A DNA stretch of 64,000 nucleotides from Marsupella aquatica (taxonomy: Eukaryota > Plantae > Marchantiophyta), in the NCBI GenBank assembly GCA_973895155.1, contig OZ316891.1, positions 23,869,899 to 23,933,898 on the forward strand, read 5' to 3'. The translations under genes and the position numbers were made by a program. The notes beneath the pieces were generated by a model. It did not search any database. It was given only the letters and a program-made list of their open reading frames with translations, and was not told where the DNA came from. Below, piece after piece: positions 2,477-47,419 of this stretch (positions are counted from its first letter, which is position 1; each line of letters opens with the position of its first letter).

Positions 2477-2480
2477 TTTT

Positions 2481-2498
2481 TGGCGCTAGATGGAGGGG
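2481..2498 (+). other. Primer binding site TGGCGCTAGATGGAGGGG
   Basis: TGG-starting motif 4 nt after the LTR end. Cognate tRNA not identified. Confidence 0.8.
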
Positions 2499-2545
2499 GC
2501 ATTTCTTAAGCCGTGAGATATGAAGTTAGAACGGAAGCGTAGGTA

Positions 2546-5539: not shown

Positions 5540-8500
5540 ATACCAAGGGATCGGCATACAAGCCGATTACGAGGGCAGAACAAATTGAGGCCCTATTAGA
5601 AGCCGAGAGAGCACAGCGGCCTAACTCTCAGGAGCAAGAAGTGGATGAGATGGACAGACACGATCCAGAGCCAAGGCAGGAAGGGGAGCCGACCACTAAT
5701 TCAAAACCGAATAGACCGGTAAGGGGACAATCTATGGACACCAAGGAAGGGACCAACTCGGCTAGTCCAGCCGAGATCCCAGTTTATGGAGGTATGAGAT
5801 TAGAGAGACTGGAAGCCGAACTGGACCCGAATTTGAAGAAGCAGATTAATATGATCCAAGCACGGCAATATCGGAAGCTCGACTTAGGAGAGGGAAGAGA
5901 ACTGAACTTAGGGAGAAACCTAGCACCTGAGCTCGAGAAAGAGATCAGTGACTTATTGATTGAATTTCAGGATGTGTTTGCATGGAGTCACCAAGATCTA
6001 AAGGGAGTAGATCCAACACTAGGGGAACATCGAATTGATCTCATGTTAGGAGCCAAATCATTTCGACAACCAATTCGAAGGATGAACCCGAAGTATTCCC
6101 TGCTGGTCAAAACAGAAATCGACAAACTAGTGGAAGCTGGATTCATCACTCCAGTCCTGCATTCAGACTGGGTGTCTCCAATTGTGATAGTTCCCAAGAA
6201 AGCTAGACCCGATGGTAAACCCAAGATCCGGGTTTGTCAGGATTACAGGAAGCTGAATGAAGCAACATTAAAAGACCATTTTCCTTTACCGTTTACTGAT
6301 ATGGTACTAGACATGGTAGCCAGTCATGAACTATATTCATTCATGGATGGATACTCTGGTTATAACCAAATCAGGATTCGGCAGGAAGACCAAATCAAGA
6401 CGGCCTTCATCACGGAATGGGGGATCTATGTCTTCAATCGTATGCCGTTTGGACTCTGCAACGCACCAGCTATGTTCCAACGATTAATGGTGAACATTTT
6501 TCATGATTACTTGAGAAAGTTCATGGAAATCTTCATTGATGACTTTGCAGTATTCGGGAAGGCATCGAAACATGCTAAATACCTCAGGAAAACCTTCATG
6601 AGATGTAGAGAGGTGGGTCTCAAGTTACACCCAGATAAATGTTTTTTTGCAGTAACCGAGGGGGTGCTACTAGGTCACAAGGTATCAAGGAAGGGCATTG
6701 AGATTGACAAAGGTAAGCTAGCAATATGGCTAGATATCATGCAACCTAAGAACATAAAGGATGTAAGATCCTTCTTGGGATGCATTGGTTACTATCGCCG
6801 GTTCATCAAGGATTTTGCCAAGCTGGCTTTACCATTAACCAATATGCTCAAGGCAGGAGCAGACTTCGAACCCACACCCGAACGAGTCACAGCGGTGGTA
6901 GAATTGAAGCAGATGTTAGTAGAGGCCCCAGTCATGATAGCACCGGACTGGAACAAAGATTTTCATGTTTTTGTAGATGTCTCGGGCTTCTGTATTGGCT
7001 CAGTACTAAGTCAGTTGGATGAGAAAGGAAGGGACCATCCCATATACTTTGCAAGCCGTCAGCTTGCCGATGCCGAACGGAACTACTCTACCACGGAAAG
7101 AGAAGCATTAGGAGTCATTTATTCTTGTAAAAAGTTTAGGCATTATTTACTAGGGTACAAGGTAATCTTTCATACTGATCATGAAAGTTTGAAGTACCTA
7201 GTCAATAAGCCGGACCTTATAGGCAGAGTAGCAAGATGGATTTTGCTATTACAGGAGTTTGACTATGAGCTGAGGATCAAGCCGGGAAAGTTACATGCCA
7301 ATGCCGACTTCTTTTCAAGGATCACAGGTAAACCTGCCACGGATTGCATCGATGATCGATTCCCCGACGAGGAGCTATTTGTTGTGGAAATAGCTGGTAC
7401 ATGGTACCCTGAGATTTTACAATTTCTCAGCACTTCCAGATTACAGCCAGGATTAAGCCGAGAGCAAGCCGCAGTCTTTGTGCGGAAGGTCAGACAGTAT
7501 CAGTGCATTAAAGGCATACTGCACAAGCATGGAATCAACGGCACGATTCAAAGATGTTTGGAAAAGAGAGAGGTAAAATGAGTCCTACGGGCCATGCATG
7601 GAGAGGAGGCCGGAGGACATTTTGCCCCAGTAACCACGTCTAAGAAGATATTAAATGCCGGTTACTGGTGGCCCACCTTGCACAAAGATGTCTATCAGTT
7701 TATCAAACAATGCGATCCTTGTCAACGAGCGGGAGGACCAAGGGCGTCCACCAGGCATCCATTGCACCCTATTCTACCTCTGGCACCATTCGAGAAGTGG
7801 GGTATTGATTACATTGGACCTCTGAAACCACTGACCCACCCTCGACGGAACAAGTACATAATCCTGGCTACGGATTATGCAACTAAATGGGTAGAGGCCA
7901 GACCAACAACGAAGGATGATGCAATTACTACGGCTAGATTCATGTATGAGCAGATCTTCACCAGGTATGGAGCACCCCTAGAATTAGTTAGTGATAGAGG
8001 AACCCATTTTTTGAATGATATAATTAGTCGTTTAAATGAGCAGTATTTAGTTAAACATAGGCCTACTACTCCCTACCATCCAAAGGCAAACGGGTTGACA
8101 GAACGAGCAAACGGAATCATAGGAAAGATATTGAACAAGACAGTAGCTCAGAACAAACTCGATTGGGATGATAAATTGTTTGCTGCTGTTTTTGCTTACA
8201 ATCTTGCCTATAAATCCACTACCGGTCATACACCCTTCTTCTTAACCTTTGGACAAGAAGCCCTGGTACCCATGCAACTTGAGATACCGACATTTCAAGT
8301 TACAATTGAGGAAAGAGCCTCAGCGGAGGAGAGCCTAAAGGAGCGAGAATATAGGTTAGAAGCTTTAGAGGAAGCGAGAATGATTTCAGCCGAGAGAGTA
8401 GAATATAGACAGAATATCATGAAGCAGCAGTATGATAAAAGGTTAAAAGTAGTTAGTATTCATACCGGTGATCTTGTGCTACTTTATGACAGTAGGTATA

Positions 8501-8687
8501 GTAGGTTTCCAGGAAAGCTTTACACTCGCTGGTTAGGACCCTTTAGAGTAACCATGATGTTCCCCAATGGCTCCGTACAATTGGCCAACATTACGGGAGA
8601 GGTATATCCAGTTCGCATCTATTATGACCGCCTCAAGAAATACTATATGGACGAAGATGAAGTTGTTCGCGAGGACGCTTCACAATT

Positions 8688-8697
8688 AAGTGGGGAG
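8688..8697 (+). other. Polypurine tract AAGTGGGGAG
   Basis: Lies 3 nt before TGTGATGCC. The same context is conserved in family B at 25295-25304. Confidence 0.8.
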
Positions 8698-8700
8698 CTA

Positions 8701-11700
8701 TGTGATGCCTAGACAGGAATCACTCGGCCGGTTAAGTGGGTAAAGCAGGAAGGCACCCTAGGAACACCTTAGTATAGGGACAAAACAAGGAAAATATAAA
8801 CAATTAGGGGCAACCATGGAACCCGGGCAGAGGCCGGAGGTAAGGCTGAGGGTGAAAACCCAATTAGGGTTAGGGCGCGTTAAGCGTCGGCGGCTAGGAA
8901 GGATCAACGGGAAGAAGGACCGGCAGAGGAGAGGGGTAAGGAGCGCTTGCAGGAGATGGTGGCTCATTTGCGAGCACGAACTAGGCAGACGACTACGGGA
9001 GGCCAACTACTGTCAGCTGCTTAGGCAAGCACTCGGGGAGAGAGTAGATACCGACGATCGACCTAAGGAGGGTATGAGCAACGTCAATCAAGCGGCACAT
9101 TTCTGGGGATGCCTGTTCGAACGGGCAACTGAGTACATCAAGACTTACGAGGACGAGGAGTCAGAAAGGGCAGCTCGAGAACGGCAGGAGCTCGCTCGAT
9201 TGTGGGAGCTGCAGAAGACGGCTTTCTTAGGAGGCAAACTCATCAAGGACGAGTTCCTGTGGACGCCTACTTCCAATCAACTCGACGATCTTCTGTTTTG
9301 CAAAGACAGCGTCGTCGGCATCCGAGAGGCCATCAAGAACTGCAATGACATACACTGGGAATTAAAGGGTAGCACGGAAAGGTGGACCCAGGCAACGGTG
9401 CTAGGAGAAACCTCCACGGCAGTAGAGATGAAGAGGAAGGGGGCCGTCAACGATGAAGCCACCCCGGCAAAAAGAACGAGGTCGGCGGCACCAAAGAGGC
9501 CAGCCGAGCAGCAGAGCAGGAGGCAGGGAGAAGCCGAAGAGGAGGAGGTCGATCCCATCAAGGCCATTCCAACCAGGGATGACACCTGGAAGGGCTGGGC
9601 GGCAACCCTACCGGTGGAGGTGCAACTACATTTTGCACGGGAGGAGGATGCATGCTTTACGGCCATGCAGACCAAGAAGTACCAAGGCTTCATGGCCGGA
9701 TCCGGCTTGGAGGCCTTTGTAAGATTACCATGGCTGAAGCCGGAGGTACCGGAGTCAGACCTATTAGAATTCGTGGGGTCATGGGAACCCGAGACCAATT
9801 GCACGAGGATATATGGGAAGGATTTCTATCTTACTCCCAAGGTAATTGCCGAAGTGTTTGGCTTGCCGATAGGCAATAAGACCAAAGTTGATACCAGGAA
9901 GACCCTGCCTGACAAGGAGTTCCGGTCGTTCCCCGGGCCATCAACGAAGAATGGCTTCTTCCGGAACACCTGCACCAACCCGCACATAGGAGAGATGATC
10001 GACTTCTTGCGGGTGACCATGCATTGTAACTTGCCGAGGGCAGAGATCGGCAAGGCACAGGTCTATCTGGCATAAAGGCCAGACCCAAGCCGGGACTACA
10101 ACGGGTACCTCCTCAACCAATTGAAGAAGATCTTAAAGGAGGAGCAGCAGGTAATCGGCATGGGGAGCGTGTCGCGGCTTGGCTATCACATGCCGCTGTT
10201 ATGCCGGTATGCCAAAGGTCAGACTTTTGCCCCGGTACTTCCCCTGCAGGTAAGGGCACCCGAGGAAGCTCCAACGCCGAGGCCGTTGGCTGAAAAGCCT
10301 CAACCACCTGTTAGTCCTACGATCGAGCAGGTGTTTAGGCCCAGGAAGGAAGACTTGCCGATGCAGCAACCAGGCATGCAGAGTCTGCTGAAACTACTGG
10401 AGAAAGAAAAGAAATCGGCATCGGCAACAACAACGGCAACGGCAACAATGCAGGACACTACTACAGAGGTAGGCCTACACCGGCTCACAAGAGAAAACCC
10501 CTTTGCTGGAGACAAGGAGAGAATCAGGCCGGAATCCAAGCCAGGTGTTCGAATGTACGTGGGAACCTCAAGCTCTGAATCTGAGGCAGAATTGCCTGAA
10601 GCTCCTACCGACGAAGAGGAGAGGGAGAAGCCGGACGTCCAAGAGGTAGAGGAGGCAGTGGAGGACTGCAGCCATGATAATTCCGGCTATGGGTCGGACC
10701 ATCACGTTCCAGGAGTAAGGACCTGTGGCCGGTTTGTCCCCACACTTCCAAGGGTAGTGCGAGGGGACCCCAACCAGCAGAGTAGCCCTGAGTCTCCCCC
10801 ACCAGATGTTGCTCCCCCGAGCTTTGACGGCATAAAACAGACGGTGCAGGAATTTCCGGAGCGAATCAAGCAGGAGGAAGAGGCCGCCCTGGCTAAGGAA
10901 AAGGATTTACCAGGAGGAGATTGGCCGGAGGACATCAGGCGGCTAGCCGAAAAAGGAAGCAAACCTCTAGCCACGATTGAAGAGATCCACAGGACGGCTT
11001 GGGAGCAGAGGCCATGATGGGCGATGCCGATCACTTCTACTTACTCCACCTACGCTAAGAATAGAGCCATGGAGTATGGTGAGATGTGTGGGGAACTTGC
11101 GCTCGGCATCTTTGGAGAGGAGTTGGAGGTAGGACCCTTTTTCCATAGGGAGCAGTTGGAGAAGCACCAATTAGAAGAAGCGGTGGCTTTAGAGAGAAGC
11201 AAGAAGGACGAGGTCATTCGGCGGCTTAGGAGGATGGAAGCCGAGATTGAAGATCTAAGGGCGGCCAAGAAAGCCCAAGATGAACTGCGGATTAAACCAC
11301 ATGAGCTGAACATCATGCAGGGGCAGTTGGACACCGCGCAGGCTGATAATCAGAATATCAAGGATAAACTAACTCAGACGCAGGGAGAGTTGGCCGACAC
11401 GATCAAAGAGAGGGAGAAGTGGAAGCAAGAGCTGAAGAATACAGAGGAGGCCCACATAACAGCCAACAGCCGGGCCATGGCGGAGACCCAAAGAAAGGAA
11501 TGGGCGTTGAAAGGGGAGCTCGAGAAAATCCGCGGAGCCCTTGAGCAGAAGGAGGTCGAGTTAGGGAAATCCTATCAAGGGATTATGGCGCTACAGCAGG
11601 AGCTTGCGTCCCTGACGGCCAGCTTCAAGGCCGACCTAAGGGAGAAGGACGAGATGCTCGAACAGACTTACGCCAAGATGAACCAGATGGAGTCTGTCAT

Positions 11701-13360
11701 CATTGCAGAGCTCGACAAGGAGCTAAGAGCAACCCAGGAGGAGAGGGCTACCTTGAAGAAGGAATTGGAGGAAGCCCACAGGGAGCAGGAGGAGGCCAAA
11801 AACGAGCTGGAGGGGGCACGTAAGGACCTGGATGAAACCCAAGAGGAGTTGGAGGAAATCACGAGGAAGATGGAGAACCTACAGCGGCGGGCCGACAACC
11901 AAACAGAGCGGCTGAAGAAACAAGCCGCAGTATTTAAATGCTTAGCTGCAGCAGGTCCATCTCCCGTTGGGACAAACCAGTTACCAGGGGTGGTAATTGC
12001 CGAAGGACAAGCCGCGCCAACTGCACCAGTGCCGGAAGTAAGTGGGAAGGGGAAGGGACCAGCTGCCGAGCCACCAACGAAGAAGAAGCGGAAACCTTCA
12101 GGGTCAAGGAGTAATACGACTTCACAGGCCGTGGTGATCAAGGAGGTAGACCCAGCACCGACCCCAGACAGGGTCACGGCTAAGGATCCAACTACCCTAG
12201 GGGAAGGGGAGGCCAAAGCCGAGGGAGTGGCTGAAGCCGAAGCCGTGGGAGTGGCTGAGGCCAAAGCCGTGGGTATTGCCGAGGCCGGTGTCGAGGCTGA
12301 AGCCGAAGGTGGACCCAGTCAGGCCGATGGAGAGTTGACTCAGTCAAGGGCAGGTAATCTGTCAGAGAATGAACCTACGGCAGTGGCTGAGGAGGAAGCG
12401 TTGGGGGCGTCCATTAAGGATCCACCACCGGTGTCATGACAGTGCAAGGGCGCCGTTCCTTTTAGGGAGGGCGGACGTGGAGGGAGGAGGCGTGAGTGGG
12501 CAGGGCGGGCGCGGATCTCCACGTTTAGGATTAGGATCAGAACCAGGAGCGGCCCTGACACTTAGCTTAGTGGGATTGCGGTCCCACTGGTAGGAGCAAC
12601 ACTTGTGCTCCTGCCTTGCTGTACATAGGTAGATTCGGGCAAGTAGATTACTGTTAAGTAGATTAGGCTTACGATGCAAAGAATGGCGGATCCACTACCA
12701 GGATAAGTACCTGGGCAGCGGGGAGCTCAGGGCCTCTTCTTTAGCAAGTTTTTAGTTTGCACCAGCCGGGCTGGGATCAAGTAGTACGAGAAGCTCTCGG
12801 TTAGTCATACAGTGACTCTTGTGTATATTCATGTTTCCTCATGCCTAAGAGCTGAATAGAGTTGGCCTCACGGCTTAGTTCGCAGAACTTGTGTATGAGA
12901 TGTACTGTTTGTATGGCAAGTGCATGGTATGACTCAGTCAGAATGAGTCATTTTGCTATTTGTGTGTCGCATTAACTTGTGTGAAGAGTGCCCACATCAA
13001 CAGAAGGAAGGAAAGTAAGCAGGGGAGTGAGAGTTGGATGTGTCGAGCTGAGAGAGGTCTTAGCGGCTTAACCAAGCCTATTGGGGATCATTCCGGCGGC
13101 GGAATCCAAACATACCTAACAAGACGGAGGGGAAGACAGGGGAAGACAGGGGAAGGCCTATATTAGGCCGGCTACGTATCTCATGACCCGATGAAGGATC
13201 TGTCCAGTATATGTGTGTAAAATGTTAATAGTAGTAGTAGAAGGTTAGCAGCGTCCCATGCCGCTAAGCCGCGGAAACGGCCTCGCCAAGCACGAAACCT
13301 GCGGGAATCGGCTTGAGCTGGGGGGTTTCTTGGGTTTAGGGAGCCATGGGACGCACCACA
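8701..13360 (+). repeat. LTR2 of family A (4660 bp), shared between tandem units
   Basis: TGTGATGC...GCACCACA imperfect inverted termini. PPT upstream, PBS downstream. Confidence 0.88.
8816..12439 (+). pseudogene. LTR-encoded ORF interrupted by stops at 10073-10075 and 11015-11017
   Basis: Three in-frame pieces collinear with intact 19700-23335. Confidence 0.88.
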
Positions 13361-13364
13361 TTTT

Positions 13365-13382
13365 TGGCGCTAGATGGAGGGG
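13365..13382 (+). other. Primer binding site, copy 2
   Basis: Identical to 2481-2498. Confidence 0.8.
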
Positions 13383-13429
13383 GCATTTCTTAAGCCGTGA
13401 GATATGAAGTTAGAACGGAAGCGTAGGTA

Positions 13430-16423
13430 ATGACTGACCTTACGCCGAGGGAAGAAAGAGTGATTCAACGGGAGAGAGCTCGACTGCAGCAGCTCGTCGG
13501 GTGGCATGATACACAGCGACTGAGAGGGGCAGAAAGAGCTGGTAGCTCCGAAACTGGAAGTGGCGTCGAAGAAGACATACCAGAAGAAGAGTCGGTAAGG
13601 AGAAGTGAGTCTACAACCGACATGGGGGAACCAGAGGCACGGCCAGACGAGAGGTCAGGGACCAGATTGAGCCAGCGGTTGCGCATACATTACAAGGCAT
13701 TTCATGGGAGAGGAGATGAGGATCCGGACGAATGGTTGGATGATTTCGAGGGAACCGCTGCAGCAAATGGAGAATCGGCCATCAAGATGCAGATTCTTCC
13801 CGGCCTGTTCAAGGGTGAGGCTAGGCCTTGGTATAGAGCATTAGATGTGGAAGATCAAGCCATCTGGGATATCTTCAAAACACTCTTTGTTAAGGAGTTT
13901 CGACCCATTGGAACTTCAGAACTAGCAGTGCTGAAGTTGGGACAACTTCGGTTCAAGGAGAACAAATCCTTCAGGAAGTTCTTGCAACGCTTTCAGAAAC
14001 TGGTAAGACGTACAAAGACCAATGCATCTGAAGGTATGCAACTTCAATGGTTGGTGAATGCTTTGCCACAGAAGATGAGTTTTGCAATTAGGAAGGAGAA
14101 CCCGGAGACTTTAGCCGAAGCAATTAAGGATATTCAATTATACATTAATGCAGATATCACAAGCCGGAAGAAACAGCTTAAGTCTGAGAGTTCCTCATCA
14201 GAGGAGGGATCACCCCATAAGAAAAAAGATAAGAAGAAGAAACATCCCAAGAAGTCTAGAAGTGATAAGTCAAGCTCGGATAGTGGGAGTAGCAAGAGTG
14301 AGTCATCTTCTAGTTCTGAAGAAGAAAAAACTAGGAAAAGGAAGGGCAGAAGGAGAGGGAAGACGAAAGTCAAGATGGAGGCTAAGCCACCAGATAACAT
14401 CGTAGCCCTTACCGAGCAACTTAAGGCTATCATTGCAGAGGTAAAACCAAAGAAGAAGGTAGTACAGGAGGATAGCTCTGTATGGTGTGCCTTATGTTAT
14501 AAAACCGGACACCATAAAGATGCTTGTCCTAAGCTTAATACTAATCATGTTCGGCATGTGGCCGAGATCAGACCATGTCAGGGAGAAGTAGAGTACTTTT
14601 TGGGAGATGCCGCTGATAGTGTTTTCGGCATCAGTGAGACTGGAGCACGAGACCTATCCAACAGACCTGCATCTCTGTGGTCAGGGTTAAGGAACAATCC
14701 AGGAGAGATGTATCCTCGGATTATTCAGAACCCGTCAGTACCTCCTAGGCCGAATGTGCAAAGATTTGCGGCGTGCTATAATTGTGGTCAACCTGGCCAT
14801 TTTGCTAGAGAATGCCCGAATGCACGCAAACAGGGTGATGGACAACCAGCTCAGCTATGTATGGGATGCCGACAGGAAGGTCATATGCTAGGGCAATGTC
14901 CTACTTGGTTGGCAGGCCTGGCCGCAAATCATAAGCTTTTGCCGATCAAGATCTTACCGCCAGGTACTACCCCCGGAGGAGTTCAAATCAACCACATCAA
15001 ACTAGGATGGCAAGAGGATGCCGAGGCAGAGTTCGTACCATCTGATGATGAGGCCGAAGCCCTATCAACCTTCTCAGAGGAGGATTTAGATCATGATTGC
15101 TACCGGGTCTCTACTCGATCTACCAGAAGGAAGGAAAGGTGGGATGGGCTGGCCAAAAATAAAGGGAAGGTTACGGAGGAAAGGATCGACTCTTCGTCAA
15201 CATCAACAGAAGGAGAAGGGAGGGCTCCGGCAATACAGGTAAGCCATGAGCCCACCAGTGAAACCAATCCTTCACAAGATAGCGACTTCAATCGAGATCA
15301 TCCTAAGTTGTTCTACCCCTCTGTTACGGCTAGTGTTAAGGAACAACTAAGAGAATTAGAAACCCTGGAGAATACCGAAGCCATTGCCAAGGATGTAAAA
15401 CGAGCAAAAGCATTGTTTGCTTCGGAAGACCCAACAGCTGTGGAGACTAGCGTGGCAAAACTGGCCGAATCCAAGACGGAAACACCACCAGAAGAGAAGC
15501 CGATTGTTCCCTATGACCTGGCTAAAGATGTACTAGAATCTAGAGTCTCGGCAACAGTAGGTCAACTATTGAAAAATAGCCCGTACTTCCGGAAGCAATT
15601 AAGGAAGGCTATTCTTGGCAAGCCGAGATTACCCAAGGTAGCAACCAGATCTGACGTACTAATGATAGAAGAAGATCAAGGAGCCCCAGCATTACCATTA
15701 ATGATTCAAGGAGAATTATTACTACGGGTACCCATCGATGGAGGATCAGGGGTATGTATTATGATTGATTCAACAGCAAAAGGGTGGGGTCTAACACCGG
15801 AGATGACTGGAAGAGTGTTGAACATGGCCAATGGATATCAGGTCATTCCGACGGGAGTGTTAACCGGCATCAAGACAGAGATAGGAGGTATCTTCTTTAG
15901 CATTAACTATGTAGTAATGAAGCCGGTAAATCCTACGTCATTCCGGCTATTGATTGGTAGGCCATGGCTGTACCTAGCCGAGGTAATAGAAGATTGGGGT
16001 AAAAAGCAGTTCACTTTCGGGACCCCCTCTATCACAGTATCCTGGGACACTAAGGATGACCGTAGGAAAAGCATAAGGGAAGTAGATGGGTACGACAGTG
16101 GACTGGAGTCAGCCGATGAAGTACGTTGGTTAGAATGCCTCACTAACCTAACCGAAGAAGGTGTCTTTGGACCAGAGGTACCCCCCAGCGGATTATGGCA
16201 AGAACCAATGGAAGGTGACTTGGAAGAAGAAGACGAAGAGGTCGAGGACTGCTTTACAATAGAATCCACCTTTTTAGCTGCAATTCCGGAGGAAGTAAAG
16301 GATGTAGACCAATTGGATGAAACGGCTAAGTGGGGAGCAATAGCAGGGACAGTGGATTTTTTGCAGGCGTTGTGGCAGAGCCGACGGGGTCCACAACGCC
16401 ATCGATCATCGGCAAGGAATTAA
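13430..16423 (+). CDS. gag: Gag-protease polyprotein, copy 2
   Basis: Same translation as 2546-5539. Confidence 0.92.
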   Translation: MTDLTPREERVIQRERARLQQLVGWHDTQRLRGAERAGSSETGSGVEEDIPEEESVRRSESTTDMGEPEARPDERSGTRLSQRLRIHYKAFHGRGDEDPDEWLDDFEGTAAANGESAIKMQILPGLFKGEARPWYRALDVEDQAIWDIFKTLFVKEFRPIGTSELAVLKLGQLRFKENKSFRKFLQRFQKLVRRTKTNASEGMQLQWLVNALPQKMSFAIRKENPETLAEAIKDIQLYINADITSRKKQLKSESSSSEEGSPHKKKDKKKKHPKKSRSDKSSSDSGSSKSESSSSSEEEKTRKRKGRRRGKTKVKMEAKPPDNIVALTEQLKAIIAEVKPKKKVVQEDSSVWCALCYKTGHHKDACPKLNTNHVRHVAEIRPCQGEVEYFLGDAADSVFGISETGARDLSNRPASLWSGLRNNPGEMYPRIIQNPSVPPRPNVQRFAACYNCGQPGHFARECPNARKQGDGQPAQLCMGCRQEGHMLGQCPTWLAGLAANHKLLPIKILPPGTTPGGVQINHIKLGWQEDAEAEFVPSDDEAEALSTFSEEDLDHDCYRVSTRSTRRKERWDGLAKNKGKVTEERIDSSSTSTEGEGRAPAIQVSHEPTSETNPSQDSDFNRDHPKLFYPSVTASVKEQLRELETLENTEAIAKDVKRAKALFASEDPTAVETSVAKLAESKTETPPEEKPIVPYDLAKDVLESRVSATVGQLLKNSPYFRKQLRKAILGKPRLPKVATRSDVLMIEEDQGAPALPLMIQGELLLRVPIDGGSGVCIMIDSTAKGWGLTPEMTGRVLNMANGYQVIPTGVLTGIKTEIGGIFFSINYVVMKPVNPTSFRLLIGRPWLYLAEVIEDWGKKQFTFGTPSITVSWDTKDDRRKSIREVDGYDSGLESADEVRWLECLTNLTEEGVFGPEVPPSGLWQEPMEGDLEEEDEEVEDCFTIESTFLAAIPEEVKDVDQLDETAKWGAIAGTVDFLQALWQSRRGPQRHRSSARN
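16354..16413 (+). promoter_or_regulatory. Putative -1 frameshift signal, copy 2
   Basis: Identical to 5470-5529. Confidence 0.8.
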
Positions 16424-19400
16424 ATACCAAGGGATCGGCATACAAGCCGATTACGAGGGCAGAACAAATTGAGGCCCTATTAGAAGCCGAGAGAGCACAG
16501 CGGCCTAACTCTCAGGAGCAAGAAGTGGATGAGATGGACAGACACGATCCAGAGCCAAGGCAGGAAGGGGAGCCGACCACTAATTCAAAACCGAATAGAC
16601 CGGTAAGGGGACAATCTATGGACACCAAGGAAGGGACCAACTCGGCTAGTCCAGCCGAGATCCCAGTTTATGGAGGTATGAGATTAGAGAGACTGGAAGC
16701 CGAACTGGACCCGAATTTGAAGAAGCAGATTAATATGATCCAAGCACGGCAATATCGGAAGCTCGACTTAGGAGAGGGAAGAGAACTGAACTTAGGGAGA
16801 AACCTAGCACCTGAGCTCGAGAAAGAGATCAGTGACTTATTGATTGAATTTCAGGATGTGTTTGCATGGAGTCACCAAGATCTAAAGGGAGTAGATCCAA
16901 CACTAGGGGAACATCGAATTGATCTCATGTTAGGAGCCAAATCATTTCGACAACCAATTCGAAGGATGAACCCGAAGTATTCCCTGCTGGTCAAAACAGA
17001 AATCGACAAACTAGTGGAAGCTGGATTCATCACTCCAGTCCTGCATTCAGACTGGGTGTCTCCAATTGTGATAGTTCCCAAGAAAGCTAGACCCGATGGT
17101 AAACCCAAGATCCGGGTTTGTCAGGATTACAGGAAGCTGAATGAAGCAACATTAAAAGACCATTTTCCTTTACCGTTTACTGATATGGTACTAGACATGG
17201 TAGCCAGTCATGAACTATATTCATTCATGGATGGATACTCTGGTTATAACCAAATCAGGATTCGGCAGGAAGACCAAATCAAGACGGCCTTCATCACGGA
17301 ATGGGGGATCTATGTCTTCAATCGTATGCCGTTTGGACTCTGCAACGCACCAGCTATGTTCCAACGATTAATGGTGAACATTTTTCATGATTACTTGAGA
17401 AAGTTCATGGAAATCTTCATTGATGACTTTGCAGTATTCGGGAAGGCATCGAAACATGCTAAATACCTCAGGAAAACCTTCATGAGATGTAGAGAGGTGG
17501 GTCTCAAGTTACACCCAGATAAATGTTTTTTTGCAGTAACCGAGGGGGTGCTACTAGGTCACAAGGTATCAAGGAAGGGCATTGAGATTGACAAAGGTAA
17601 GCTAGCAATATGGCTAGATATCATGCAACCTAAGAACATAAAGGATGTAAGATCCTTCTTGGGATGCATTGGTTACTATCGCCGGTTCATCAAGGATTTT
17701 GCCAAGCTGGCTTTACCATTAACCAATATGCTCAAGGCAGGAGCAGACTTCGAACCCACACCCGAACGAGTCACAGCGGTGGTAGAATTGAAGCAGATGT
17801 TAGTAGAGGCCCCAGTCATGATAGCACCGGACTGGAACAAAGATTTTCATGTTTTTGTAGATGTCTCGGGCTTCTGTATTGGCTCAGTACTAAGTCAGTT
17901 GGATGAGAAAGGAAGGGACCATCCCATATACTTTGCAAGCCGTCAGCTTGCCGATGCCGAACGGAACTACTCTACCACGGAAAGAGAAGCATTAGGAGTC
18001 ATTTATTCTTGTAAAAAGTTTAGGCATTATTTACTAGGGTACAAGGTAATCTTTCATACTGATCATGAAAGTTTGAAGTACCTAGTCAATAAGCCGGACC
18101 TTATAGGCAGAGTAGCAAGATGGATTTTGCTATTACAGGAGTTTGACTATGAGCTGAGGATCAAGCCGGGAAAGTTACATGCCAATGCCGACTTCTTTTC
18201 AAGGATCACAGGTAAACCTGCCACGGATTGCATCGATGATCGATTCCCCGACGAGGAGCTATTTGTTGTGGAAATAGCTGGTACATGGTACCCTGAGATT
18301 TTACAATTTCTCAGCACTTCCAGATTACAGCCAGGATTAAGCCGAGAGCAAGCCGCAGTCTTTGTGCGGAAGGTCAGACAGTATCAGTGCATTAAAGGCA
18401 TACTGCACAAGCATGGAATCAACGGCACGATTCAAAGATGTTTGGAAAAGAGAGAGGTAAAATGAGTCCTACGGGCCATGCATGGAGAGGAGGCCGGAGG
18501 ACATTTTGCCCCAGTAACCACGTCTAAGAAGATATTAAATGCCGGTTACTGGTGGCCCACCTTGCACAAAGATGTCTATCAGTTTATCAAACAATGCGAT
18601 CCTTGTCAACGAGCGGGAGGACCAAGGGCGTCCACCAGGCATCCATTGCACCCTATTCTACCTCTGGCACCATTCGAGAAGTGGGGTATTGATTACATTG
18701 GACCTCTGAAACCACTGACCCACCCTCGACGGAACAAGTACATAATCCTGGCTACGGATTATGCAACTAAATGGGTAGAGGCCAGACCAACAACGAAGGA
18801 TGATGCAATTACTACGGCTAGATTCATGTATGAGCAGATCTTCACCAGGTATGGAGCACCCCTAGAATTAGTTAGTGATAGAGGAACCCATTTTTTGAAT
18901 GATATAATTAGTCGTTTAAATGAGCAGTATTTAGTTAAACATAGGCCTACTACTCCCTACCATCCAAAGGCAAACGGGTTGACAGAACGAGCAAACGGAA
19001 TCATAGGAAAGATATTGAACAAGACAGTAGCTCAGAACAAACTCGATTGGGATGATAAATTGTTTGCTGCTGTTTTTGCTTACAATCTTGCCTATAAATC
19101 CACTACCGGTCATACACCCTTCTTCTTAACCTTTGGACAAGAAGCCCTGGTACCCATGCAACTTGAGATACCGACATTTCAAGTTACAATTGAGGAAAGA
19201 GCCTCAGCGGAGGAGAGCCTAAAGGAGCGAGAATATAGGTTAGAAGCTTTAGAGGAAGCGAGAATGATTTCAGCCGAGAGAGTAGAATATAGACAGAATA
19301 TCATGAAGCAGCAGTATGATAAAAGGTTAAAAGTAGTTAGTATTCATACCGGTGATCTTGTGCTACTTTATGACAGTAGGTATAGTAGGTTTCCAGGAAA

Positions 19401-19571
19401 GCTTTACACTCGCTGGTTAGGACCCTTTAGAGTAACCATGATGTTCCCCAATGGCTCCGTACAATTGGCCAACATTACGGGAGAGGTATATCCAGTTCGC
19501 ATCTATTATGACCGCCTCAAGAAATACTATATGGACGAAGATGAAGTTGTTCGCGAGGACGCTTCACAATT

Positions 19572-19581
19572 AAGTGGGGAG
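19572..19581 (+). other. Polypurine tract, copy 2
   Basis: Identical to 8688-8697. Confidence 0.8.
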
Positions 19582-19584
19582 CTA

Positions 19585-22500
19585 TGTGATGCCTAGACAG
19601 GAATCACTCGGCCGGTTAAGTGGGTAAAGCAGGAAGGCACCCTAGGAACACCTTAGTATAGGGACAAAACAAGGAAAATATAAACAATTAGGGGCAACCA
19701 TGGAACCCGGGCAGAGGCCGGAGGTAAGGCTGAGGGTGAAAACCCAATTAGGGTTAGGGCGCGTTAAGCGTCGGCGGCTAGGAAGGATCAACGGGAAGAA
19801 GGACCGGCAGAGGAGAGGGGTAAGGAGCGCTTGCAGGAGATGGTGGCTCATTTGCGAGCACGAACTAGGCAGACGACTACGGGAGGCCAACTACTGTCAG
19901 CTGCTTAGGCAAGCACTCGGGGAGAGAGTAGATACCGACGATCGACCTAAGGAGGGTATGAGCAACGTCAATCAAGCGGCACATTTCTGGGGATGCCTGT
20001 TCGAACGGGCAACTGAGTACATCAAGACTTACGAGGACGAGGAGTCAGAAAGGGCAGCTCGAGAACGGCAGGAGCTCGCTCGATTGTGGGAGCTGCAGAA
20101 GACGGCTTTCTTAGGAGGCAAACTCATCAAGGACGAGTTCCTGTGGACGCCTACTTCCAATCAACTCGACGATCTTCTGTTTTGCAAAGACAGCGTCATC
20201 GGCATCCGAGAGGCCATCAAGAACTGCAACGACATACACTGGGAATTAAAGGGTAGCACGGAAAGGTGGACCCAGGCAACGGTGCTAGGAGAAACCTCCA
20301 CGGCAGTAGAGATGAAGAGGAAGGGGGCCGTCAACGATGAAGCCACCCCGGCAAAAAGAACGAGGTCGGCGGCACCAAAGAGGCCAGCCGAGCAGCAAAG
20401 CAGGAGGCAGGGAGAAGCCAAAGAGGAGGAGGTCGATCCCATCAAGGCCATTCCAACCAGGGATGACACCTGGAAGGGCTGGGCGGCAACCCTACCGGTG
20501 GAGGTGCAACTACATTTTGCACGGGAGGAGGATGCATGCTTTACGGCCATGCAGACCAAGAAGTACCAAGGCTTCATGGCCGGATCCGGCTTGGAGGCCT
20601 TTGTAAGATTACCATGGCTGAAGCCGGAGGTACCGGAGTCAGACCTATTAGAATTCGTGGGGTCATGGGAACCCGAGACCAATTGCACGAGGATATATGG
20701 GAAGGATTTCTATCTTACTCCCAAGGTAATTGCCGAAGTGTTTGGCTTGCCGATAGGCAATAAGACCAAAGTTGATACCAGGAAGACCCTGCCTGACAAG
20801 GAGTTCTGGTCGTTCCCCGGGCCATCAACGAAGAATGGCTTCTTCCGGAACACCTGCACCAACCCGCACATAGGAGAGATGATCGACTTCTTGCGGGTGA
20901 CCATGCATTGTAACTTGCCGATGGCAGAGATCGGCAAGGCACAGGTCTATCTGGCAGAAAGGCCAGACCCAAGCCGGGACTACAACGGGTACCTCCTCAA
21001 CCAATTGAAGAAGATCTTAAAGGAGGAGCAGCAGGTAATCGGCATGGGGAGCGTGTCGCGGCTTGGCTATCACATGCCGCTGTTGTGCCGGTATGCCAGA
21101 GGTCAGACTTTTGCCCCGGTACTTCCCCTGCAGGTAAGGGCACCCGAGGAAGCTCCAACGCCGAGGCCGTTGGCTGAAAAGCCTCAACCACCTGTTAGTC
21201 CTACGATCGAGCAGGTGTTTAGGCCCAGGAAGGAAGACTTGCCGATGCAGCAACCAGGCATGCAGAGTCTGCTGAAACTACTGGAGAAAGAAAAGAAATC
21301 GGCATCGGCAACAACAACGGCAACGGCAACAATGCAGGACACTACTACAGAGGTAGGCCTACACCGGCTCACAAGAGAAAACCCCTTTGCTGGAGACAAG
21401 GAGAGAATCAGGCCGGAATCCAAGCCAGGTGTTCGAATGTACGTGGGAACCTCAAGCTCCGAATCTGAGGCAGAATTGCCTGAAGCTCCTACCGATGAAG
21501 AGGAGAGGGAGAAGCCGGACGTCCAAGAGGTAGAGGAGGCAGTGGAGGACTGCAGCCATGATAATTCCGGCTATGGGTTGGACCATCACGTTCCAGGAGT
21601 AAGGACCTGTGGCCGGTTTGTCCCCACACTTCCAAGGGTAGTGCGAGGGGACCCCAACCAGCAGAGTAGCCCTGAGTCTCCCCCACCAGATGTTGCTCCC
21701 CCGAGCTTCGACGGCATAAAACAGACGGTGCAGGAATTTCCGGAGCGAATCAAGCAGGAGGAAGAGGCCGCCCTGGCTAAGGAAAAGGATTTACCAGGAG
21801 GAGATTGGCCGGAGGACATCAGGCGGCTAGCCGAAAAAGGAAGCAAACCTCTAGCCACGATTGAAGAGATCCACAGGACGGCTTGGGAGCAGAGGCCACG
21901 ATGGGCGATGCCGATCACTTCTACTTACTCCACCTACGCTAAGAATAGAGCCATGGAGTATGGTGAGATGTGTGGGGAACTTGCGCTCGGCATCTTTGGA
22001 GAGGAGTTGGAGGTAGGACCCTTTTTCCATAGGGAGCAGTTGGAGAAGCACCAATTAGAAGAAGCGGTGGCTTTAGAGAGAAGCAAGAAGGACGAGGTCA
22101 TTCGGCGGCTTAGGAGGATGGAAGCCGAGATTGAAGATCTAAGGGCGGCCAAGAAAGCCCAAGATGAACTGCGGATTAAACGACATGAGCTGAACATCAT
22201 GCAGGGGCAGTTGGACACCGCGCAGGCTGATAATCAGAATATCAAGGATAAACTAACTCAGACGCAGGGAGAGTTGGCCGACACGATCAAAGAGAGGGAG
22301 AAGTGGAAGCAAGAGCTGAAGAATACAGAGGAGGCCCACATAACAGCCAACAGCCGGGCCATGGCGGAGACCCAAAGAAAGGAATGGGCGTTGAAAGGGG
22401 AGCTCGAGAAAATCCGCGGAGCCCTTGAGCAGAAGGAGGTCGAGTTAGGGAAATCCTATCAAGGGATTATGGCGCTACAGCAGGAGCTTGCGTCCCTGAC

Positions 22501-24256
22501 GGCCAGCTTCAAGGCCGACCTAAGGGAGAAGGACGAGATGCTCGAACAGACTTACGCCAAGATGAACCAGATGGAGTCTGTCATCATTGCAGAGCTCGAC
22601 AAGGAGCTAAGAGCAACCCAGGAGGAGAGGGCTACCTTGAAGAAGGAATTGGAGGAAGCCCACAGGGAGCAGGAGGAGGCCAAAAACGAGCTGGAGGGGG
22701 CACGTAAGGACCTGGATGAAACCCAAGAGGAGTTGGAGGAAATCACGAGGAAGATGGAGAACCTACAGCGGCGGGCCGACAACCAAACAGAGCGGCTGAA
22801 GAAACAAGCCGCAGTATTTAAATGCTTAGCTGCAGCAGGTCCATCTCCCGTTGGGACAAACCAGTTACCAGGGGTGGTAATTGCCGAAGGACAAGCCGCG
22901 CCAACTGCACCAGTGCCGGAAGTAAGTGGGAAGGGGAAGGGACCAGCTGCCGAGCCACCAACGAAGAAGAAGCGGAAACCTTCAGGGTCAAGGAGTAATA
23001 CGACTTCACAGGCCGTGGTGATCAAGGAGGTAGACCCAGCACCGACCCCAGACAGGGTCACGGCTAAGGATCCAACTACCCTAGGGGAAGGGGAGGCCGA
23101 AGCCGTGGGGTTGGCTGAGGCCGAAGCCGTGGGGTTGGCTGAAGCCGAAGCCGTGGGGGTGGCTGAAGCCGAAGCCGTGGGAGTTGTCGAGGCTGAAGCC
23201 GAAGGTGGACCCAGTCAGGCCGATGGAGAGTTGACTCGGTCAAGGGCAGGTAATCTGTTAGTAGGCGGGCCAACGGCAGTGGCTGAGGAGGAAGTGTTGG
23301 GGGCGTCCATTGAGGATCCACCACCGGTGTCGTGACGGTGCAAGGGCACCGTTCCTTTTAGGGAGGGCGGACGTGGAGGGAGGAGGCGTGAGTGGGCAGG
23401 GCGGGCACGGATCTCCACGTTTAGGATTAGGATCAGAACCAGGAGCGGCCCTGACACTTAGCTTAGTGGGATTGCGGTCCCACTGGTAGGAGCAACACTT
23501 GTGCTCCTGCCTTGCTGTACATAGGTAGATTCGGGCAAGTAGATTACTGTTAAGTAGATTAGGCTTACGATGCAAAGAATGGCGGATCCACTACCAGGAT
23601 AAGTACCTGGGCAGCGGGGAGCTCAGGGCCTCTTCTTTAGCAAGTTTTTAGTTTGCACCAGCCGGGCTGGGATCAAGTAGTACGAGAAGCTCTCGGTTAG
23701 TCATACAGTGACCCTTGTGTATATTCATGTTTCCTCATGCCTAAGAGCTGAATAGAGTTGGCCTCACGGCTTAGTTCGCAGAACTTGTGTATGAGATGTA
23801 CTGTTTGTATGGCAAGTGCATGGTATGACTCAGTCAGAATGAGTCATTTTGCTATTTGTGTGTCGCATTAACTTGTGTGAAGAGTGCCCACATCAACAGA
23901 AGGAAGGAAAGTAAGCAGGGGAGTGAGAGTTGGATGTGTCGAGCTGAGAGAGGTCTTAGCGGCTTAACCAAGCCTATTGGGGATCATTCCGGCGGCGGAA
24001 TCCAAACATACCTAACAAGACGGAGGGGAAGACAGGGGAAGACAGGGGAAGGCCTATATTAGGCCGGCTACGTATCTCATGACCCGATGAAGGATCTGTC
24101 CAGTATATGTGTGTAAAATGTTAATAGTAGTAGTAGAAGGTTAGCAGCGTCCCATGCCGCTAAGCCGCGGAAACGGCCTCGCCAAGCACGAAACCTGCGG
24201 GACTCGGCTTGAGCTGGGGGGTTTCTTGGGTTTAGGGAGCCATGGGACGCACCACA
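19585..24256 (+). repeat. LTR3 (3' LTR) of family A, 4672 bp
   Basis: Starts TGTGATGCC after the PPT and ends ACCACA. Followed by unrelated integrase sequence CGGGA (candidate TSD) instead of a PBS. Confidence 0.9.
19700..23335 (+). CDS. Intact LTR-encoded 1211-aa accessory protein: PMD/ATHILA-ORF-like domain, acidic linker, long coiled coil, basic NLS-like patch, AEAEAVG repeats
   Basis: Uninterrupted ORF. LEFVGSWEPETNC..YGKDFYLTPKVIAEVFGLPIG resembles the W.PET / I...LGLP..G signature of plant mobile domain and plant transposon ORFs. Contains PTKKKRKP. Confidence 0.8.
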   Translation: MEPGQRPEVRLRVKTQLGLGRVKRRRLGRINGKKDRQRRGVRSACRRWWLICEHELGRRLREANYCQLLRQALGERVDTDDRPKEGMSNVNQAAHFWGCLFERATEYIKTYEDEESERAARERQELARLWELQKTAFLGGKLIKDEFLWTPTSNQLDDLLFCKDSVIGIREAIKNCNDIHWELKGSTERWTQATVLGETSTAVEMKRKGAVNDEATPAKRTRSAAPKRPAEQQSRRQGEAKEEEVDPIKAIPTRDDTWKGWAATLPVEVQLHFAREEDACFTAMQTKKYQGFMAGSGLEAFVRLPWLKPEVPESDLLEFVGSWEPETNCTRIYGKDFYLTPKVIAEVFGLPIGNKTKVDTRKTLPDKEFWSFPGPSTKNGFFRNTCTNPHIGEMIDFLRVTMHCNLPMAEIGKAQVYLAERPDPSRDYNGYLLNQLKKILKEEQQVIGMGSVSRLGYHMPLLCRYARGQTFAPVLPLQVRAPEEAPTPRPLAEKPQPPVSPTIEQVFRPRKEDLPMQQPGMQSLLKLLEKEKKSASATTTATATMQDTTTEVGLHRLTRENPFAGDKERIRPESKPGVRMYVGTSSSESEAELPEAPTDEEEREKPDVQEVEEAVEDCSHDNSGYGLDHHVPGVRTCGRFVPTLPRVVRGDPNQQSSPESPPPDVAPPSFDGIKQTVQEFPERIKQEEEAALAKEKDLPGGDWPEDIRRLAEKGSKPLATIEEIHRTAWEQRPRWAMPITSTYSTYAKNRAMEYGEMCGELALGIFGEELEVGPFFHREQLEKHQLEEAVALERSKKDEVIRRLRRMEAEIEDLRAAKKAQDELRIKRHELNIMQGQLDTAQADNQNIKDKLTQTQGELADTIKEREKWKQELKNTEEAHITANSRAMAETQRKEWALKGELEKIRGALEQKEVELGKSYQGIMALQQELASLTASFKADLREKDEMLEQTYAKMNQMESVIIAELDKELRATQEERATLKKELEEAHREQEEAKNELEGARKDLDETQEELEEITRKMENLQRRADNQTERLKKQAAVFKCLAAAGPSPVGTNQLPGVVIAEGQAAPTAPVPEVSGKGKGPAAEPPTKKKRKPSGSRSNTTSQAVVIKEVDPAPTPDRVTAKDPTTLGEGEAEAVGLAEAEAVGLAEAEAVGVAEAEAVGVVEAEAEGGPSQADGELTRSRAGNLLVGGPTAVAEEEVLGASIEDPPPVS

Positions 24257-25340
24257 CGGGATACTGGTGGCCTATGTTGCATCGGGATGTACAACGCTTC
24301 ATCAAAGGCTGTGACCTTTGTCAGCGGGCTGGGGCCCCGAGACGAGCTCATCATCACCCTCTCACGTCCGTGCTTCCATTAGCACCATTCGAAAAGTGGG
24401 GTATTGATTATATCGGGCCGTTTACTCCCGTTACCCAAAGGCGAAGATGCAGGTACATCTTGCTAGCTATAGATTACTCCACAAGTGGGTAGAAGCACGG
24501 GCTATGGTGAAGGACGACGCCACAACCAGCGCCAGGTTCTTATATGAACAGATTTTCACCCGGTTTGGACCGCCCTTAGAGTTGGTAAGCGACCGTGGAA
24601 CACACTTCCTCAATGACACTGTAGCCCAGCTTACGGATCGTTACCTAGTCAAGCACCGCAAGACTACCCCGTATCATCCTAAAGCCAACGGGATGGTAGA
24701 GAGAGCCAATGGTATCATTGGGAAGATCCTCAACAAAACTGTAGCTGCGCACAAAATGGATTGGGATGATAAGTTGTACGCGGCGGTGTACTTGTATAAT
24801 CTAGCTTACAAAACTATTACGAGTCACAGCCCGTACTTTCTCATGTTCGGCCAACATTTGTTGGTACCCATCGAGTTTGAACTACACACTCCACGGGTCA
24901 GCATTTGGGAGCGCTTACCTGAATCTGAAAGTTCGTCAGACCAAGCTTATCAGATTGAAGCCTTAGAAGAGACACGGCTACTAGCAGCTCGACATGCCGT
25001 AATGAAGCAAGCAACTTCCAAGAAACAACACGACAAAGGACTACGGAAGGTCGACGTCGTGACAGGCAATCTAGTCCTTCTGTATGATAGTAGGTACATG
25101 CAGTTTCCAGGGAAGCTTCATACCCGTTGGTTAGGGCCCTTCCTAGTCAATCAGATCTACCCTAACGGATCTTTGGAGCTTGCAACGTACGCCAGCGATT
25201 TACTCCCCACGCGAGTCAGTTACGATCGTGTAAAGAGGTACCACCATCAAGACGATGACGCCAAGAGTGATGTTTGCAAGGACGCTTCACAATTAAGCAG
25301 GGAGCTATGTGATGCCGCCGGTACGGCAAGTAATGAGTAA
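24257..25340 (+). pseudogene. pol: Integrase 3' part of related gypsy family B (frameshift near 24478), interrupted by family A at the GYWWP motif
   Basis: GYWWP, CDLCQ, WGIDYIGP, SDRGTHF, ERANG, WLGPF. Clearly homologous to but diverged from family A. Confidence 0.9.
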
Positions 25341-28300
25341 TTTAGTCTAAACTGTGCTTAGCACGCACGTTAGGGGTATCTTAAGCTGCTATGATTAGCA
25401 TAACAACAATATTTAGGTAGCCATTATGAGTAGGAAATCATTAGTCAATAAGGGGAATTCATGTTTCGGCTGGCGGCGCATCGCCATTCGCACGCCCAGG
25501 TTACGAACGTTGAGGGGCCCCTCCCTCCGGTCCGTATAACAAACTTCGGGAGGCATCCACTGACACGCGGTGACTCAGACTGGCGGAGTGGCCGGTACAC
25601 TACAAGCGTGAATGGTTCAGCCTATAGGCAGCGAGGAGATATCGGGGGAGCGACAAGCCCTCAAGGTATAAAAAGGGAGCCGACTCTTTGTAGTGCACTA
25701 GTCCATCAGTGCGCGCGCCAGCTTTGACCCCAGCTCTCTCGTTCACTCTTACTTGCCACTACTATCTCCTCTGAATGTCGCACATGATCCTCTCTAGTTT
25801 GGCCATTCGATTCTGGACGTAGTTCCTATCTACCGGAAGACACTTGGCCGACTCGTTAAAACACGCCAACCCGCGCCGATACAAAATCAAACGCGAGTAT
25901 GAGAGAGCCATCCGCCTAGAAGGATGACACCGCTATATCCTTAACTTTGACTACCCATCTCAGAGCGAGCTCTACCGACCAGCAGAGGTATCTGGGTACT
26001 TCTTCAACGGAGACAAATATATCAGTTTCTGGGAAGCATTGCTTTGGCTCCCGAATGAGGTCTTCAATATCCCGGGTACGATCGACTTGCAACGACATCA
26101 CTTCGACCACATCCCTGCTCAGGTTCAGGCTATCATCAACAGCGAGTCCAGTACTAACCGTTCGACAAGGTCGTCCGCACTTGCTTCGGAGAACTTCTAC
26201 CAGCACCTGCAGAGCTTCATGGGAACTCGACCATCAACCAACATGACCAACTCAGTCAAACCCGTACCCGTACCCGTACCCATGCAACCTCAGGCTCAAC
26301 CTCAGGCTCAGCTTCAGCTTCAGCCTCAGCCGTAGCCTAGCCAAACCCCACCACCGATTGCCCAGCCAGCACAAATACGCTCCGTCATCAACGCTGTGGA
26401 TCTTAGCGATGACGACGAGGCTACCCCACCCTTGACCAGGCGGCCCAGAGGAACAAGCGCTCAGGGGACTGCTATATCCTTAACTTTGACTACCCATCTC
26501 AGAGCGAGCTCTACCGACCAGCAGAGGTATCTGGGTACTTCTTCAACGGAGACAAATATATCGGTTTCTGGGAAGCATTGCTTTGGCTCCCGGATGAGGT
26601 CTTCAATATCCCGGGTACGATCGACTTGCAACAACATCACTTCGACCACATCCCTGCTCAGGTTCAGGCTATCATCAACTGCGAGTCCAGTGCTACCCGT
26701 CTGACAAGGACATCTGCACTTGCTTCGGAGAACTTCTGCCAACACCTGAAAAGCTTCATGGGAACTAGACCCTCAACCGCCGGCGCCGGCCCAGTCGACC
26801 CCATACCCGTACCCGCACCAACTTAGGCTCAGCCTCAACCTCAACCTCAGCCTCACCCTAGCCAAACCCAACCGCCGATTGCCCCGCCAGTACAAGTATG
26901 CTCCGTCATCGACGCTGTGGACCTTAGCGACGATGACAAGGCTACCCCACCCTTGCTCAGGCAGCCCAGAAGAGCAAACACTCAAGGGGCCGACACTATA
27001 TCGTCCCCTCCCCATGCTCGGATCCAAGGAGCGGCTCCAGCAAACAACACGGTGACCGTGGCCGCCACGGGCCCATTACTAACGGCGGTGGTACTACCTT
27101 TGCCCGATAGAGAGGATGGGGAGGTGTCACCCTCCCCGAGCCAGTCACAAGGGAAGAAGAGGAAGGAACCCACCACTGTATCCGGGTTACCATTGGCCAC
27201 GGTAGCCGTGGCCAAGGTGACAATGCACCGCATGGGGGAAAACATGCATAAAAACATCCTCCATTCCAAGCATGCGGTGTACCTGAAGACTCAAGGATTC
27301 GAGCACCTCGCCTCTCTCCCCTGGAACACTTGCAGGTACTACAAGGAGGACATGACGGAATTCATCAAGAATTATGATGACGCACGTCAACAAACTTGGC
27401 TGCGGGGAAGGAATATGTCCCTCATGGAAGAACGGCTCAAGATGATCTTCGGGTTACCCGAAGGGGACCACCAAGTCGAATCACGGGCCCCCGGGGGCAA
27501 GGGAGCCAAGTACCAATCCTAGAGTTTTCCCTCAGAGGGAGCAGTGGACAATGGGTTTGTGATGAGGACCTGCCTCATCCCCGAGATAGCTGAGCGACTG
27601 GAGTTCCAAAGGTACGCCCTCCACATGATGGAACCCCGGGGGGAGATCTCTGCCGCCCAGGTTATCCAGGTCGAGAACTATCGACCTAGGAAGTGGGCGT
27701 CGTACTTCGTTAAGAAATTCCATGAAGAGATGGAGCGGCAAAGGAAGACGCTGTACATTGGAGGGAAGGCGTATTTTGCTAGCCACATCGAGATCATTCT
27801 TGAGTGGTACACTCGGTTTGATCAACAAACCCTTCCCCGTGTCAACGTTACAAGGCTGGTCCCAACTAGGTGGGTTTTCCCGGCCTTGGAGAGACGGCCC
27901 CAACCTGAGGCCCAAAGTCCAGTGGACACGCAGGCTTCACCCACCCCACCCCCACAAGTAGCTGTAGTCGTGACCGAGGAGGTACCGGGTGGGTCGGTTA
28001 TCGTAACCATCGATGCGATCCAATAGGCCGGGCTAGGTACAGAAGTCGGTACAGCGGAGATCTTACTCGAGCCCGGGCCCCCCAATGACCCGCCGGTGGC
28101 TATTCCGGAGAACCAGACATCACAGTAGCAGGACACTCCAGCCCTTTCCAACACGTCCCCAGGGCTGGATGTCACTGCCTTGGCCCCCGCGCGTGTTGAC
28201 GTCTGCCCATGCCCAACTCCGGAGAGGCACAACCTGGACCACCCGGAACTCTTTGTACCGGGTACCTTTCTGAATGGGCTTCTGGGAGATTTTTCTCATC

Positions 28301-29718: not shown

Positions 29719-29989
29719 GCTCCTCCTCTCCTGATTTCTCTATTCAACCATTTGCTGCGTGGATAGCAGCGTTGGAAGCGGCTTGAGCTCCTCTTTCCAA
29801 CGAGGTCAATTATAGCCGATTTGGTCAAATACACAGAAAGTTATGCCCCCGTAATCGAGAGGGGGTACTCACTGCTATGCTAACCCGAGTTACATAGCTA
29901 ACCCGAGTTTGGCTAACCTAGCTATCCTATCTAACCCGAGTAGAGCTAACCCGTGATCTCGGGTTAGGCCGCTACCCGCTTTCCGCTAA

Positions 29990-47358: not shown

Positions 47359-47419
47359 CTACAATTGCAAAGGAAAGTTTGTTAGTTCTCCATAATAGTC
47401 ACGAAACTTGACTACCTTA

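Follow-up and report, generated by a model that had tools for sequence, protein, structure and literature searches.

The first 24,256 bases of the window analysed here (a 64-kb stretch of the liverwort Marsupella aquatica, contig OZ316891.1) are a tandem array of a Ty3/gypsy retrotransposon, family A, with a unit of 10,884 bp. The array consists of a partial long terminal repeat (LTR), an internal region, an LTR at 8701-13360, a second internal region and an LTR at 19585-24256, on the forward strand like the family B features below. The last LTR contains an open reading frame (ORF) of 1211 codons, from an ATG 115 nt into the LTR to its stop (19700-23335), and 300 order-3 Markov simulations of the same LTR gave no chance ORF longer than 287 aa. 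We are almost certain that this accessory gene lies inside the LTR.

Boundaries of the LTR

Both complete LTRs open with TGTGA (8701 and 19585), directly preceded each time by the purine run AAGTGGGGAG and CTA. All three close with CACA (2476, 13360 and 24256), which is followed at 2476 and 13360 by TTTT and a primer-binding site (PBS), while at 24256 it is followed by a foreign integrase belonging to a second family, B. A preliminary description of this DNA had used these signals, the polypurine tract (PPT) with TGTGA and CACA with the PBS, to bound LTRs of about 4.66 kb, and the measured lengths of 4660 bp (the middle LTR, shared by two units) and 4672 bp bear it out. The first LTR, cut by the window start, keeps its 3' part (1-2476), with two differences from 10885-13360.

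A tandem array alone cannot fix where an LTR starts, and we therefore sought junctions with foreign DNA. The preliminary description had pointed to an inverted A-like copy, and this copy does support the boundary. It is 77% identical to A, lies on the reverse strand (44811-45427) within an unrelated gene, and begins at 45427 with TATGATG, one change from the TGTGATG of family A; a family B LTR end truncates it after codon ~165. The DNA preceding it aligns, to within ~26 nt of the junction, with the methyltransferase-like protein encoded at 50724-53075. It is thus the coding sequence of an unrelated gene, and 45427 is a true 5' LTR junction. A purine run before this copy was considered as a PPT and rejected, since it belongs to that other gene's coding sequence. 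In contigs from four public runs, exactly 19585, 13360 and 24256 are joined to sequence from elsewhere in the element, though short-sided joints may arise from repeats, and one contig aligns up to 19585 and continues for 106 unaligned letters. Over the accessory ORF, median depth exceeds the value for gag by a factor of 2.3-4.1 in all four runs, depth not being copy number, and run X6 shows no excess for the ORF relative to the whole internal region.

Family B provides the second line of evidence. Its integrase (24257-25340) is interrupted by element A and is followed, after its PPT, by a 3' LTR of 4411 bp (25308-29718; B1), with a TATAAA at position 360 and a homologous ORF at 25775-28946. 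Further downstream lies a family B solo LTR of 3953 bp (29990-33942; B2), flanked by GCTAA before and ACTAA after; GCTAA also stands in three tandem duplicates of its right end. This 5-bp target-site duplication, found in the window for family B only, since no copy of family A has both its flanks there, was claimed earlier to enclose a homologous ORF and does so. Stops and frameshifts disrupt each of the two B ORFs. The B ORFs are 25-29% identical to the A protein over its residues 288-465 and are also recovered by profile matches, whereas the A/B alignment of the N-terminal part is not significant (E 2.3). The foreign junctions, the solo LTR and the selection described below together uphold the earlier proposal that each insertion carries two copies of the gene. 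The companion proposal, that solo LTRs keep a complete gene, stands in part: the gene is retained in the B solo LTR, but this is the only solo LTR in the window and its ORF has decayed. Action of a solo-LTR gene in trans is possible.

The accessory gene, its protein and the rest of the element

The 1211-codon frame is intact in one of the three family A LTRs, the last. In the middle LTR (8816/9074-12439) it has stops at codons 420 and 734, and the ORF 3' part kept in the first LTR carries the second of these. The ratio of non-synonymous to synonymous substitution rates (dN/dS), which the preliminary description had proposed to compute among copies, is below 1: it is 0.18 between A and the A-like copy over codons 87-165 (p 6e-7), 0.35 between the last and middle LTRs, and 0.46 between B1 and B2 over 830 codons (p 1e-8), although both of these ORFs are now broken. 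Shifted reading frames, used as a control, gave 0.57-2.55. The accessory ORF is therefore under purifying selection, with dN/dS of 0.18-0.46. As secondary evidence, 11 of 15 population variants in the ORF were synonymous, the figures for gag and pol being 5 of 13 and 5 of 8, among 39 of 1164 places chosen by support.

The exception is codons 1-86 (19700-19957), where dN/dS between A and the A-like copy is 1.26 and there is no selection at the protein level. The only canonical TATA in the LTR, TATAAA at 19679-19684 (LTR position 95), is conserved in the A-like copy and is a candidate promoter for the accessory gene. It lies 21 nt upstream of the first ATG, which is too close, by general promoter spacing, for that ATG to be used. 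In addition, a homolog (P0008) begins with a methionine at the position of Met87. For these three reasons the protein probably starts at Met87 and has 1125 aa (19958-23335), and codons 1-86 would be a 5' leader. Two observations speak for the longer form: the A-like copy retains the first ATG, and its two indels within these codons are each 3 nt long. The preliminary description, which gave 1211 aa, was thus right about an ORF 115 nt into the LTR as regards the last LTR but not the copy at 8701, and its length is probably 86 residues too long. Downstream of the TATA, the leader shows conservation of its nucleotides (dS 0.18 versus 0.66). A 22-codon upstream ORF from 19840 was rejected as a conserved peptide because all four of its changes are non-synonymous, and seven windows of the leader revealed no RNA structure (z -0.9 to 1.8).

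The two whole LTRs differ in 60 columns, including a 12-bp indel, and most differences are concentrated in one patch (12215-12452 versus 23099-23348) over the repeated tail of the protein, where dS between the LTRs is 0.22 against 0.008 elsewhere. This suggests gene conversion or recombination between family members.

In the 1211-codon numbering, the protein has N-terminal helices, a conserved domain of about 200 residues (~265-470), a low-complexity linker, a predicted coiled coil (~784-1045), a KKKRK motif at 1089 and a repeated tail, and it carries nuclear-signal-like motifs. It has no transmembrane helix of the kind expected of an env-like protein (maximal 19-residue Kyte-Doolittle mean 1.07). 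Pfam has no family for the ORF, and 24 of 24 members of the domain were without a match. None of 7986 candidates from a word-index protein search with residues 1-800 was homologous, nor were any of 5533 in a search of longer proteins with the alignment. Sequence searches of the PDB returned nothing under E 0.16 for query A1 and nothing for A2, and Foldseek against PDB and viral libraries gave no match at E<=0.001. Nineteen metagenome loci with related integrases (32-49% identity) all lack the domain, but most have little flanking sequence and are distant, and are hence uninformative on close relatives. Two homologs are annotated as 'unnamed protein product' in Calypogeia fissa. Feature similarity in the Atlas reached 0.88-0.89 for ATHILA (PF03078) and 0.79-0.80 for Transposase_32 (PF20167), with no Pfam match. 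This lead is weak, and we put a relation of the domain to the Athila extra-ORF families at no more than probable. The protein is probably a nuclear regulator.

The LTR ends in a non-coding tail of 921 nt (23336-24256), the most conserved of its non-coding parts (6.2% between B1 and B2, against 11.9% for the head). The last 120 nt hold a stable hairpin (z -3.4, the best of 18 windows tested). The tails of A and B also share a block of ~33 nt with a small hairpin (13085-13120 and 29534-29570), despite unrelated surroundings, and this block is a candidate cis-element for transcription, polyadenylation or packaging. Rfam returned no matches at E<=1 in 19400-34200, be it a hammerhead or another known RNA family.

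The internal region is almost wholly coding, with gag and its zinc knuckle, reverse transcriptase (RT), RNase H and integrase in the Ty3/gypsy order. Its two copies (2477-8700 and 13361-19584) are identical, and by sequence comparison the first has the same features as the second, from the PBS and gag-protease to the integrase and PPT. The PBS (13365-13384) begins 4 nt past the LTR end, and is putatively assigned to tRNA-Asn, the window holding no tRNA gene for comparison. The gag-protease ORF (13430-16423, 997 aa) matches Retrotrans_gag (E 5e-10) and zf-CCHC (E 2e-8), with a protease motif recognised by eye only. The stop of a short upstream ORF (13415-13432) overlaps the start codon of gag (TAATG) and might serve for reinitiation. 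Gag-protease overlaps the -1 pol frame at 16330-16423, where a putative slippery site (16354) is followed by a perfect 10-bp stem (fold z -2.6), and this may be a site of programmed frameshifting from protease into RT. RT-RNase H and integrase span 16534-19596, with one stop between RNase H and integrase at 18463. A letter other than that of the stop, here and at 7579, carries most of the contig depth in runs X1-X3, and both units of the array therefore share a private lesion. The integrase frame extends 12 nt past the LTR start, and its last codons contain the PPT (19572-19581, identical at 8688-8697).

These features, between TG...CA LTRs, define a Ty3/gypsy element. It has one RNase H region, no additional RNase H (aRH) and no chromodomain family listed by Pfam, as in Athila (OTA). 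Its RT is closest to those of liverworts: in a tree of 30 rows, with 29 of 120 matches picked by hand and no labelled reference rows, it groups with Calypogeia (100/99) inside a clade that contains Riccia, apart from seed-plant RTs, which we presume to be Athila. The 5-bp duplication and the long extra ORF speak against Phygy/Selgy. These have a 4-bp duplication and no extra ORF according to supplement file 3 of PMC6317226. The same file does not give a frameshift of the kind described above as the prevailing arrangement of any lineage. Marchantia has Tat lineages without aRH (PMC10508981), and the retrotransposon lineages of a liverwort genome are listed in PMC12885004.

B1 has a duplication of ~540 bp inside its ORF (25929-27002) that is absent from the solo LTR. 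Between 32560 and 44806, a 2716-bp tandem repeat has three full units without a single difference, each comprising the 3' part of a B LTR, flank and a scrap of A-like ORF. Its probable origin is an unequal exchange in which two ends of B LTRs took part, or else an assembly artefact. Downstream of the A-like junction, 45428-64000 holds two paralogous ORF sets and has the look of a sizeable cargo-carrying DNA transposon: a NIF-like phosphatase (49435-50535, E 2e-15), an N6/N4 methylase-like ORF with a weak match (50724-53075), a further ORF (53535-55220 and 62482-63729) and a DUF7869 protein (59109-61637, E 8e-43).

Proposed mechanism and its alternatives

On balance we lean towards a reading in which a conserved accessory gene, carried in U3 with its own promoter, encodes a nuclear protein whose target is the chromatin of the element itself. 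It would descend from a 3' accessory gene of the Athila type, which joined the LTR when the site of plus-strand priming shifted to the purine tract within the final codons of the integrase. From then on, the gene would be copied to both ends of the insertion by reverse transcription, and recombination between LTRs would leave it in solo LTRs. Transcription from the TATA at position 95 would yield an mRNA with Met87 as its start codon, while synthesis of genomic RNA would begin in the conserved, structured 0.9-kb tail. Once in the nucleus, the protein would oligomerise through its coiled coil, with the ~200-aa domain binding DNA or chromatin. The most likely single role would be a VANC-like anti-silencing that shields the element.

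Anti-silencing specifically is a tentative assignment, and taken alone we consider it rather unlikely. The protein has a weak fold match to VANC21 (9lnk_A) and no match to the VANC domains DUF1985 and DUF287. The word TTAGG occurs 7.7 times per kb in the non-coding parts of A, against ~1 per kb elsewhere, an excess that is not significant against their own composition. A search for clustered VANC-like target words found none, and only TG-rich words passed correction. More doubtful still is the boldest form of this idea, in which a lineage of liverwort retrotransposons would carry a VANC-like sequence-specific anti-silencing gene in U3, and each LTR, young solo LTRs among them, would be self-contained and could reactivate its own family in trans. 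If it were true, the Athila/Transposase_32 extra-ORF domain would be a remote relative of VANC, and the long-debated 'env-like' ORFs of plants would gain a testable role.

One alternative accepts the layout and gives the protein a replicative role (nuclear import, integration targeting, particle scaffold or cell-to-cell movement) that leaves silencing untouched. We regard it as possible without favouring it, and the replication roles are jointly about as likely as a VANC-like nuclear function, which is to say unlikely. Three arguments count in its favour: the long predicted coiled coil and basic motifs suit scaffolding or import, such roles are listed among the open options for extra ORFs (PMC7264820), and the link to VANC is weak. 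However, the lack of a transmembrane helix makes a true envelope role unlikely, and a gene present in every LTR would suit a trans-acting factor better than a part of the particle.

The position of the gene within the LTR is a separate question. We think it probable that the gene lies in U3 and has an internal promoter. The main rival to this, placement in R or U5 with the TATA at position 95 making all the RNA, is rather unlikely. The genomic RNA would then have the gene as its first cistron, or the gene would be expressed from a short LTR-only mRNA ending in the tail, and gag-pol would need read-through, splicing or reinitiation. This would make it a 5' extra ORF like the ORF0 of Retrosat2, but before the PBS. 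What speaks for R or U5 is that A, the A-like copy, B1 and B2 each have their only canonical TATAAA upstream of the ORF, that the tails have none save one in B1 that is absent from B2, and that the leader after the TATA is conserved. Yet this placement would require either a minus-strand strong-stop DNA of 4.5 kb or an RNA of 15 kb, plus a way past a 3.4-kb ORF. Furthermore, the tail has its conservation, shared block and terminal hairpin, and in retroviral LTRs conservation lies mostly in or beside R and U5 (PMC2664473).

It is very improbable, and largely refuted, that the LTR consists of the 0.9-kb tail only, with the array making an ordinary internal 3' extra ORF look LTR-borne. This idea draws on the ambiguity of the array, whose true left end is beyond the window, and on a purine-rich run after the A stop codon. 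It is contradicted by the foreign junction at a TG upstream of the ORF, by the B solo LTR with its target duplication, and by the public-contig joints at 19585. Depth over the tail is similar to that over the ORF, and near 23349 the loose ends with most support turn out to be variant forms of the ORF end and not flanks of foreign origin. Equally remote is a captured host gene or nested insertion carried as a functionless passenger, which would fit the broken state of most copies and the absence of a Pfam family but not the purifying selection seen in each of two families, their shared position and architecture at such low domain identity, or the fact that we noticed no terminal repeats or duplications around the ORF.

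An LTR gene of 3.4 kb, kept in two families whose domains are about a quarter identical, revises the notion of LTRs and of solo LTRs alike, since the accessory gene would stay in place when LTR-LTR recombination removes the element. In annotation, ORFs of this sort can be mistaken for host genes, as the two Calypogeia fissa homologs illustrate, and LTRs this large approach the 6-kb length ceiling of the main plant survey. The weak VANC21 match offers a cheap and concrete test of the function of Athila-type extra ORFs.

Comparison with known systems

The closest plant parallel is Athila, which is also a non-chromovirus element without aRH and with a 5-bp duplication, and which has tRNA-Asn among its known primers (PMC6317226 supplement file 3). 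A sunflower Athila has a sense Transposase_32 ORF of 487 aa with a predicted nuclear signal (PMC11728184). The preliminary description had stated that such extra ORFs are usually internal, in agreement with PMC7264820, where those of plants are described in the internal region only and their function is left open. The Athila ORF lies between pol and the 3' LTR, whereas here it comes after the PPT, within the LTR, and gag-pol takes up nearly the whole internal region. The protein is also longer (1125 versus 487 aa), with no Pfam-level match. Retrosat2/RIRE3 (Tekay), with its ORF0, and Ogre/Retand likewise have LTRs longer than 3 kb, and an extra gene that evolves fast while under selection (PMC3485330, PMC6317226). 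They belong to other lineages, with a chromodomain or aRH, and their extra ORF stands upstream of gag-pol, as ORF0 does in Retrosat2 (PMC3485330), or between pol and the LTR, and not inside it. Our search of the openly available literature found no plant retrotransposon whose LTR carries a gene.

VANC proteins (PMC5735166; see also PMC10398659 for their anti-silencing role) are likewise encoded by the element and combine a conserved domain with variable regions containing tandem peptide repeats, in addition to the fold match discussed above. They belong to VANDAL (Mutator-like) DNA transposons, not to retroelements.

The arrangement itself is found in mammalian retroviruses. In the sag gene of the mouse mammary tumour virus (MMTV) and in lentiviral nef, a protein gene occupies the 5' part of the LTR and is copied to both ends (PMC2664473), and the ORF of family A likewise lies wholly inside the LTR. 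There is no sequence relation, and the U3 position is known there but inferred here. With a whole MMTV LTR measuring 1300 nt, the arrangement in Marsupella is like that of sag but several times larger.

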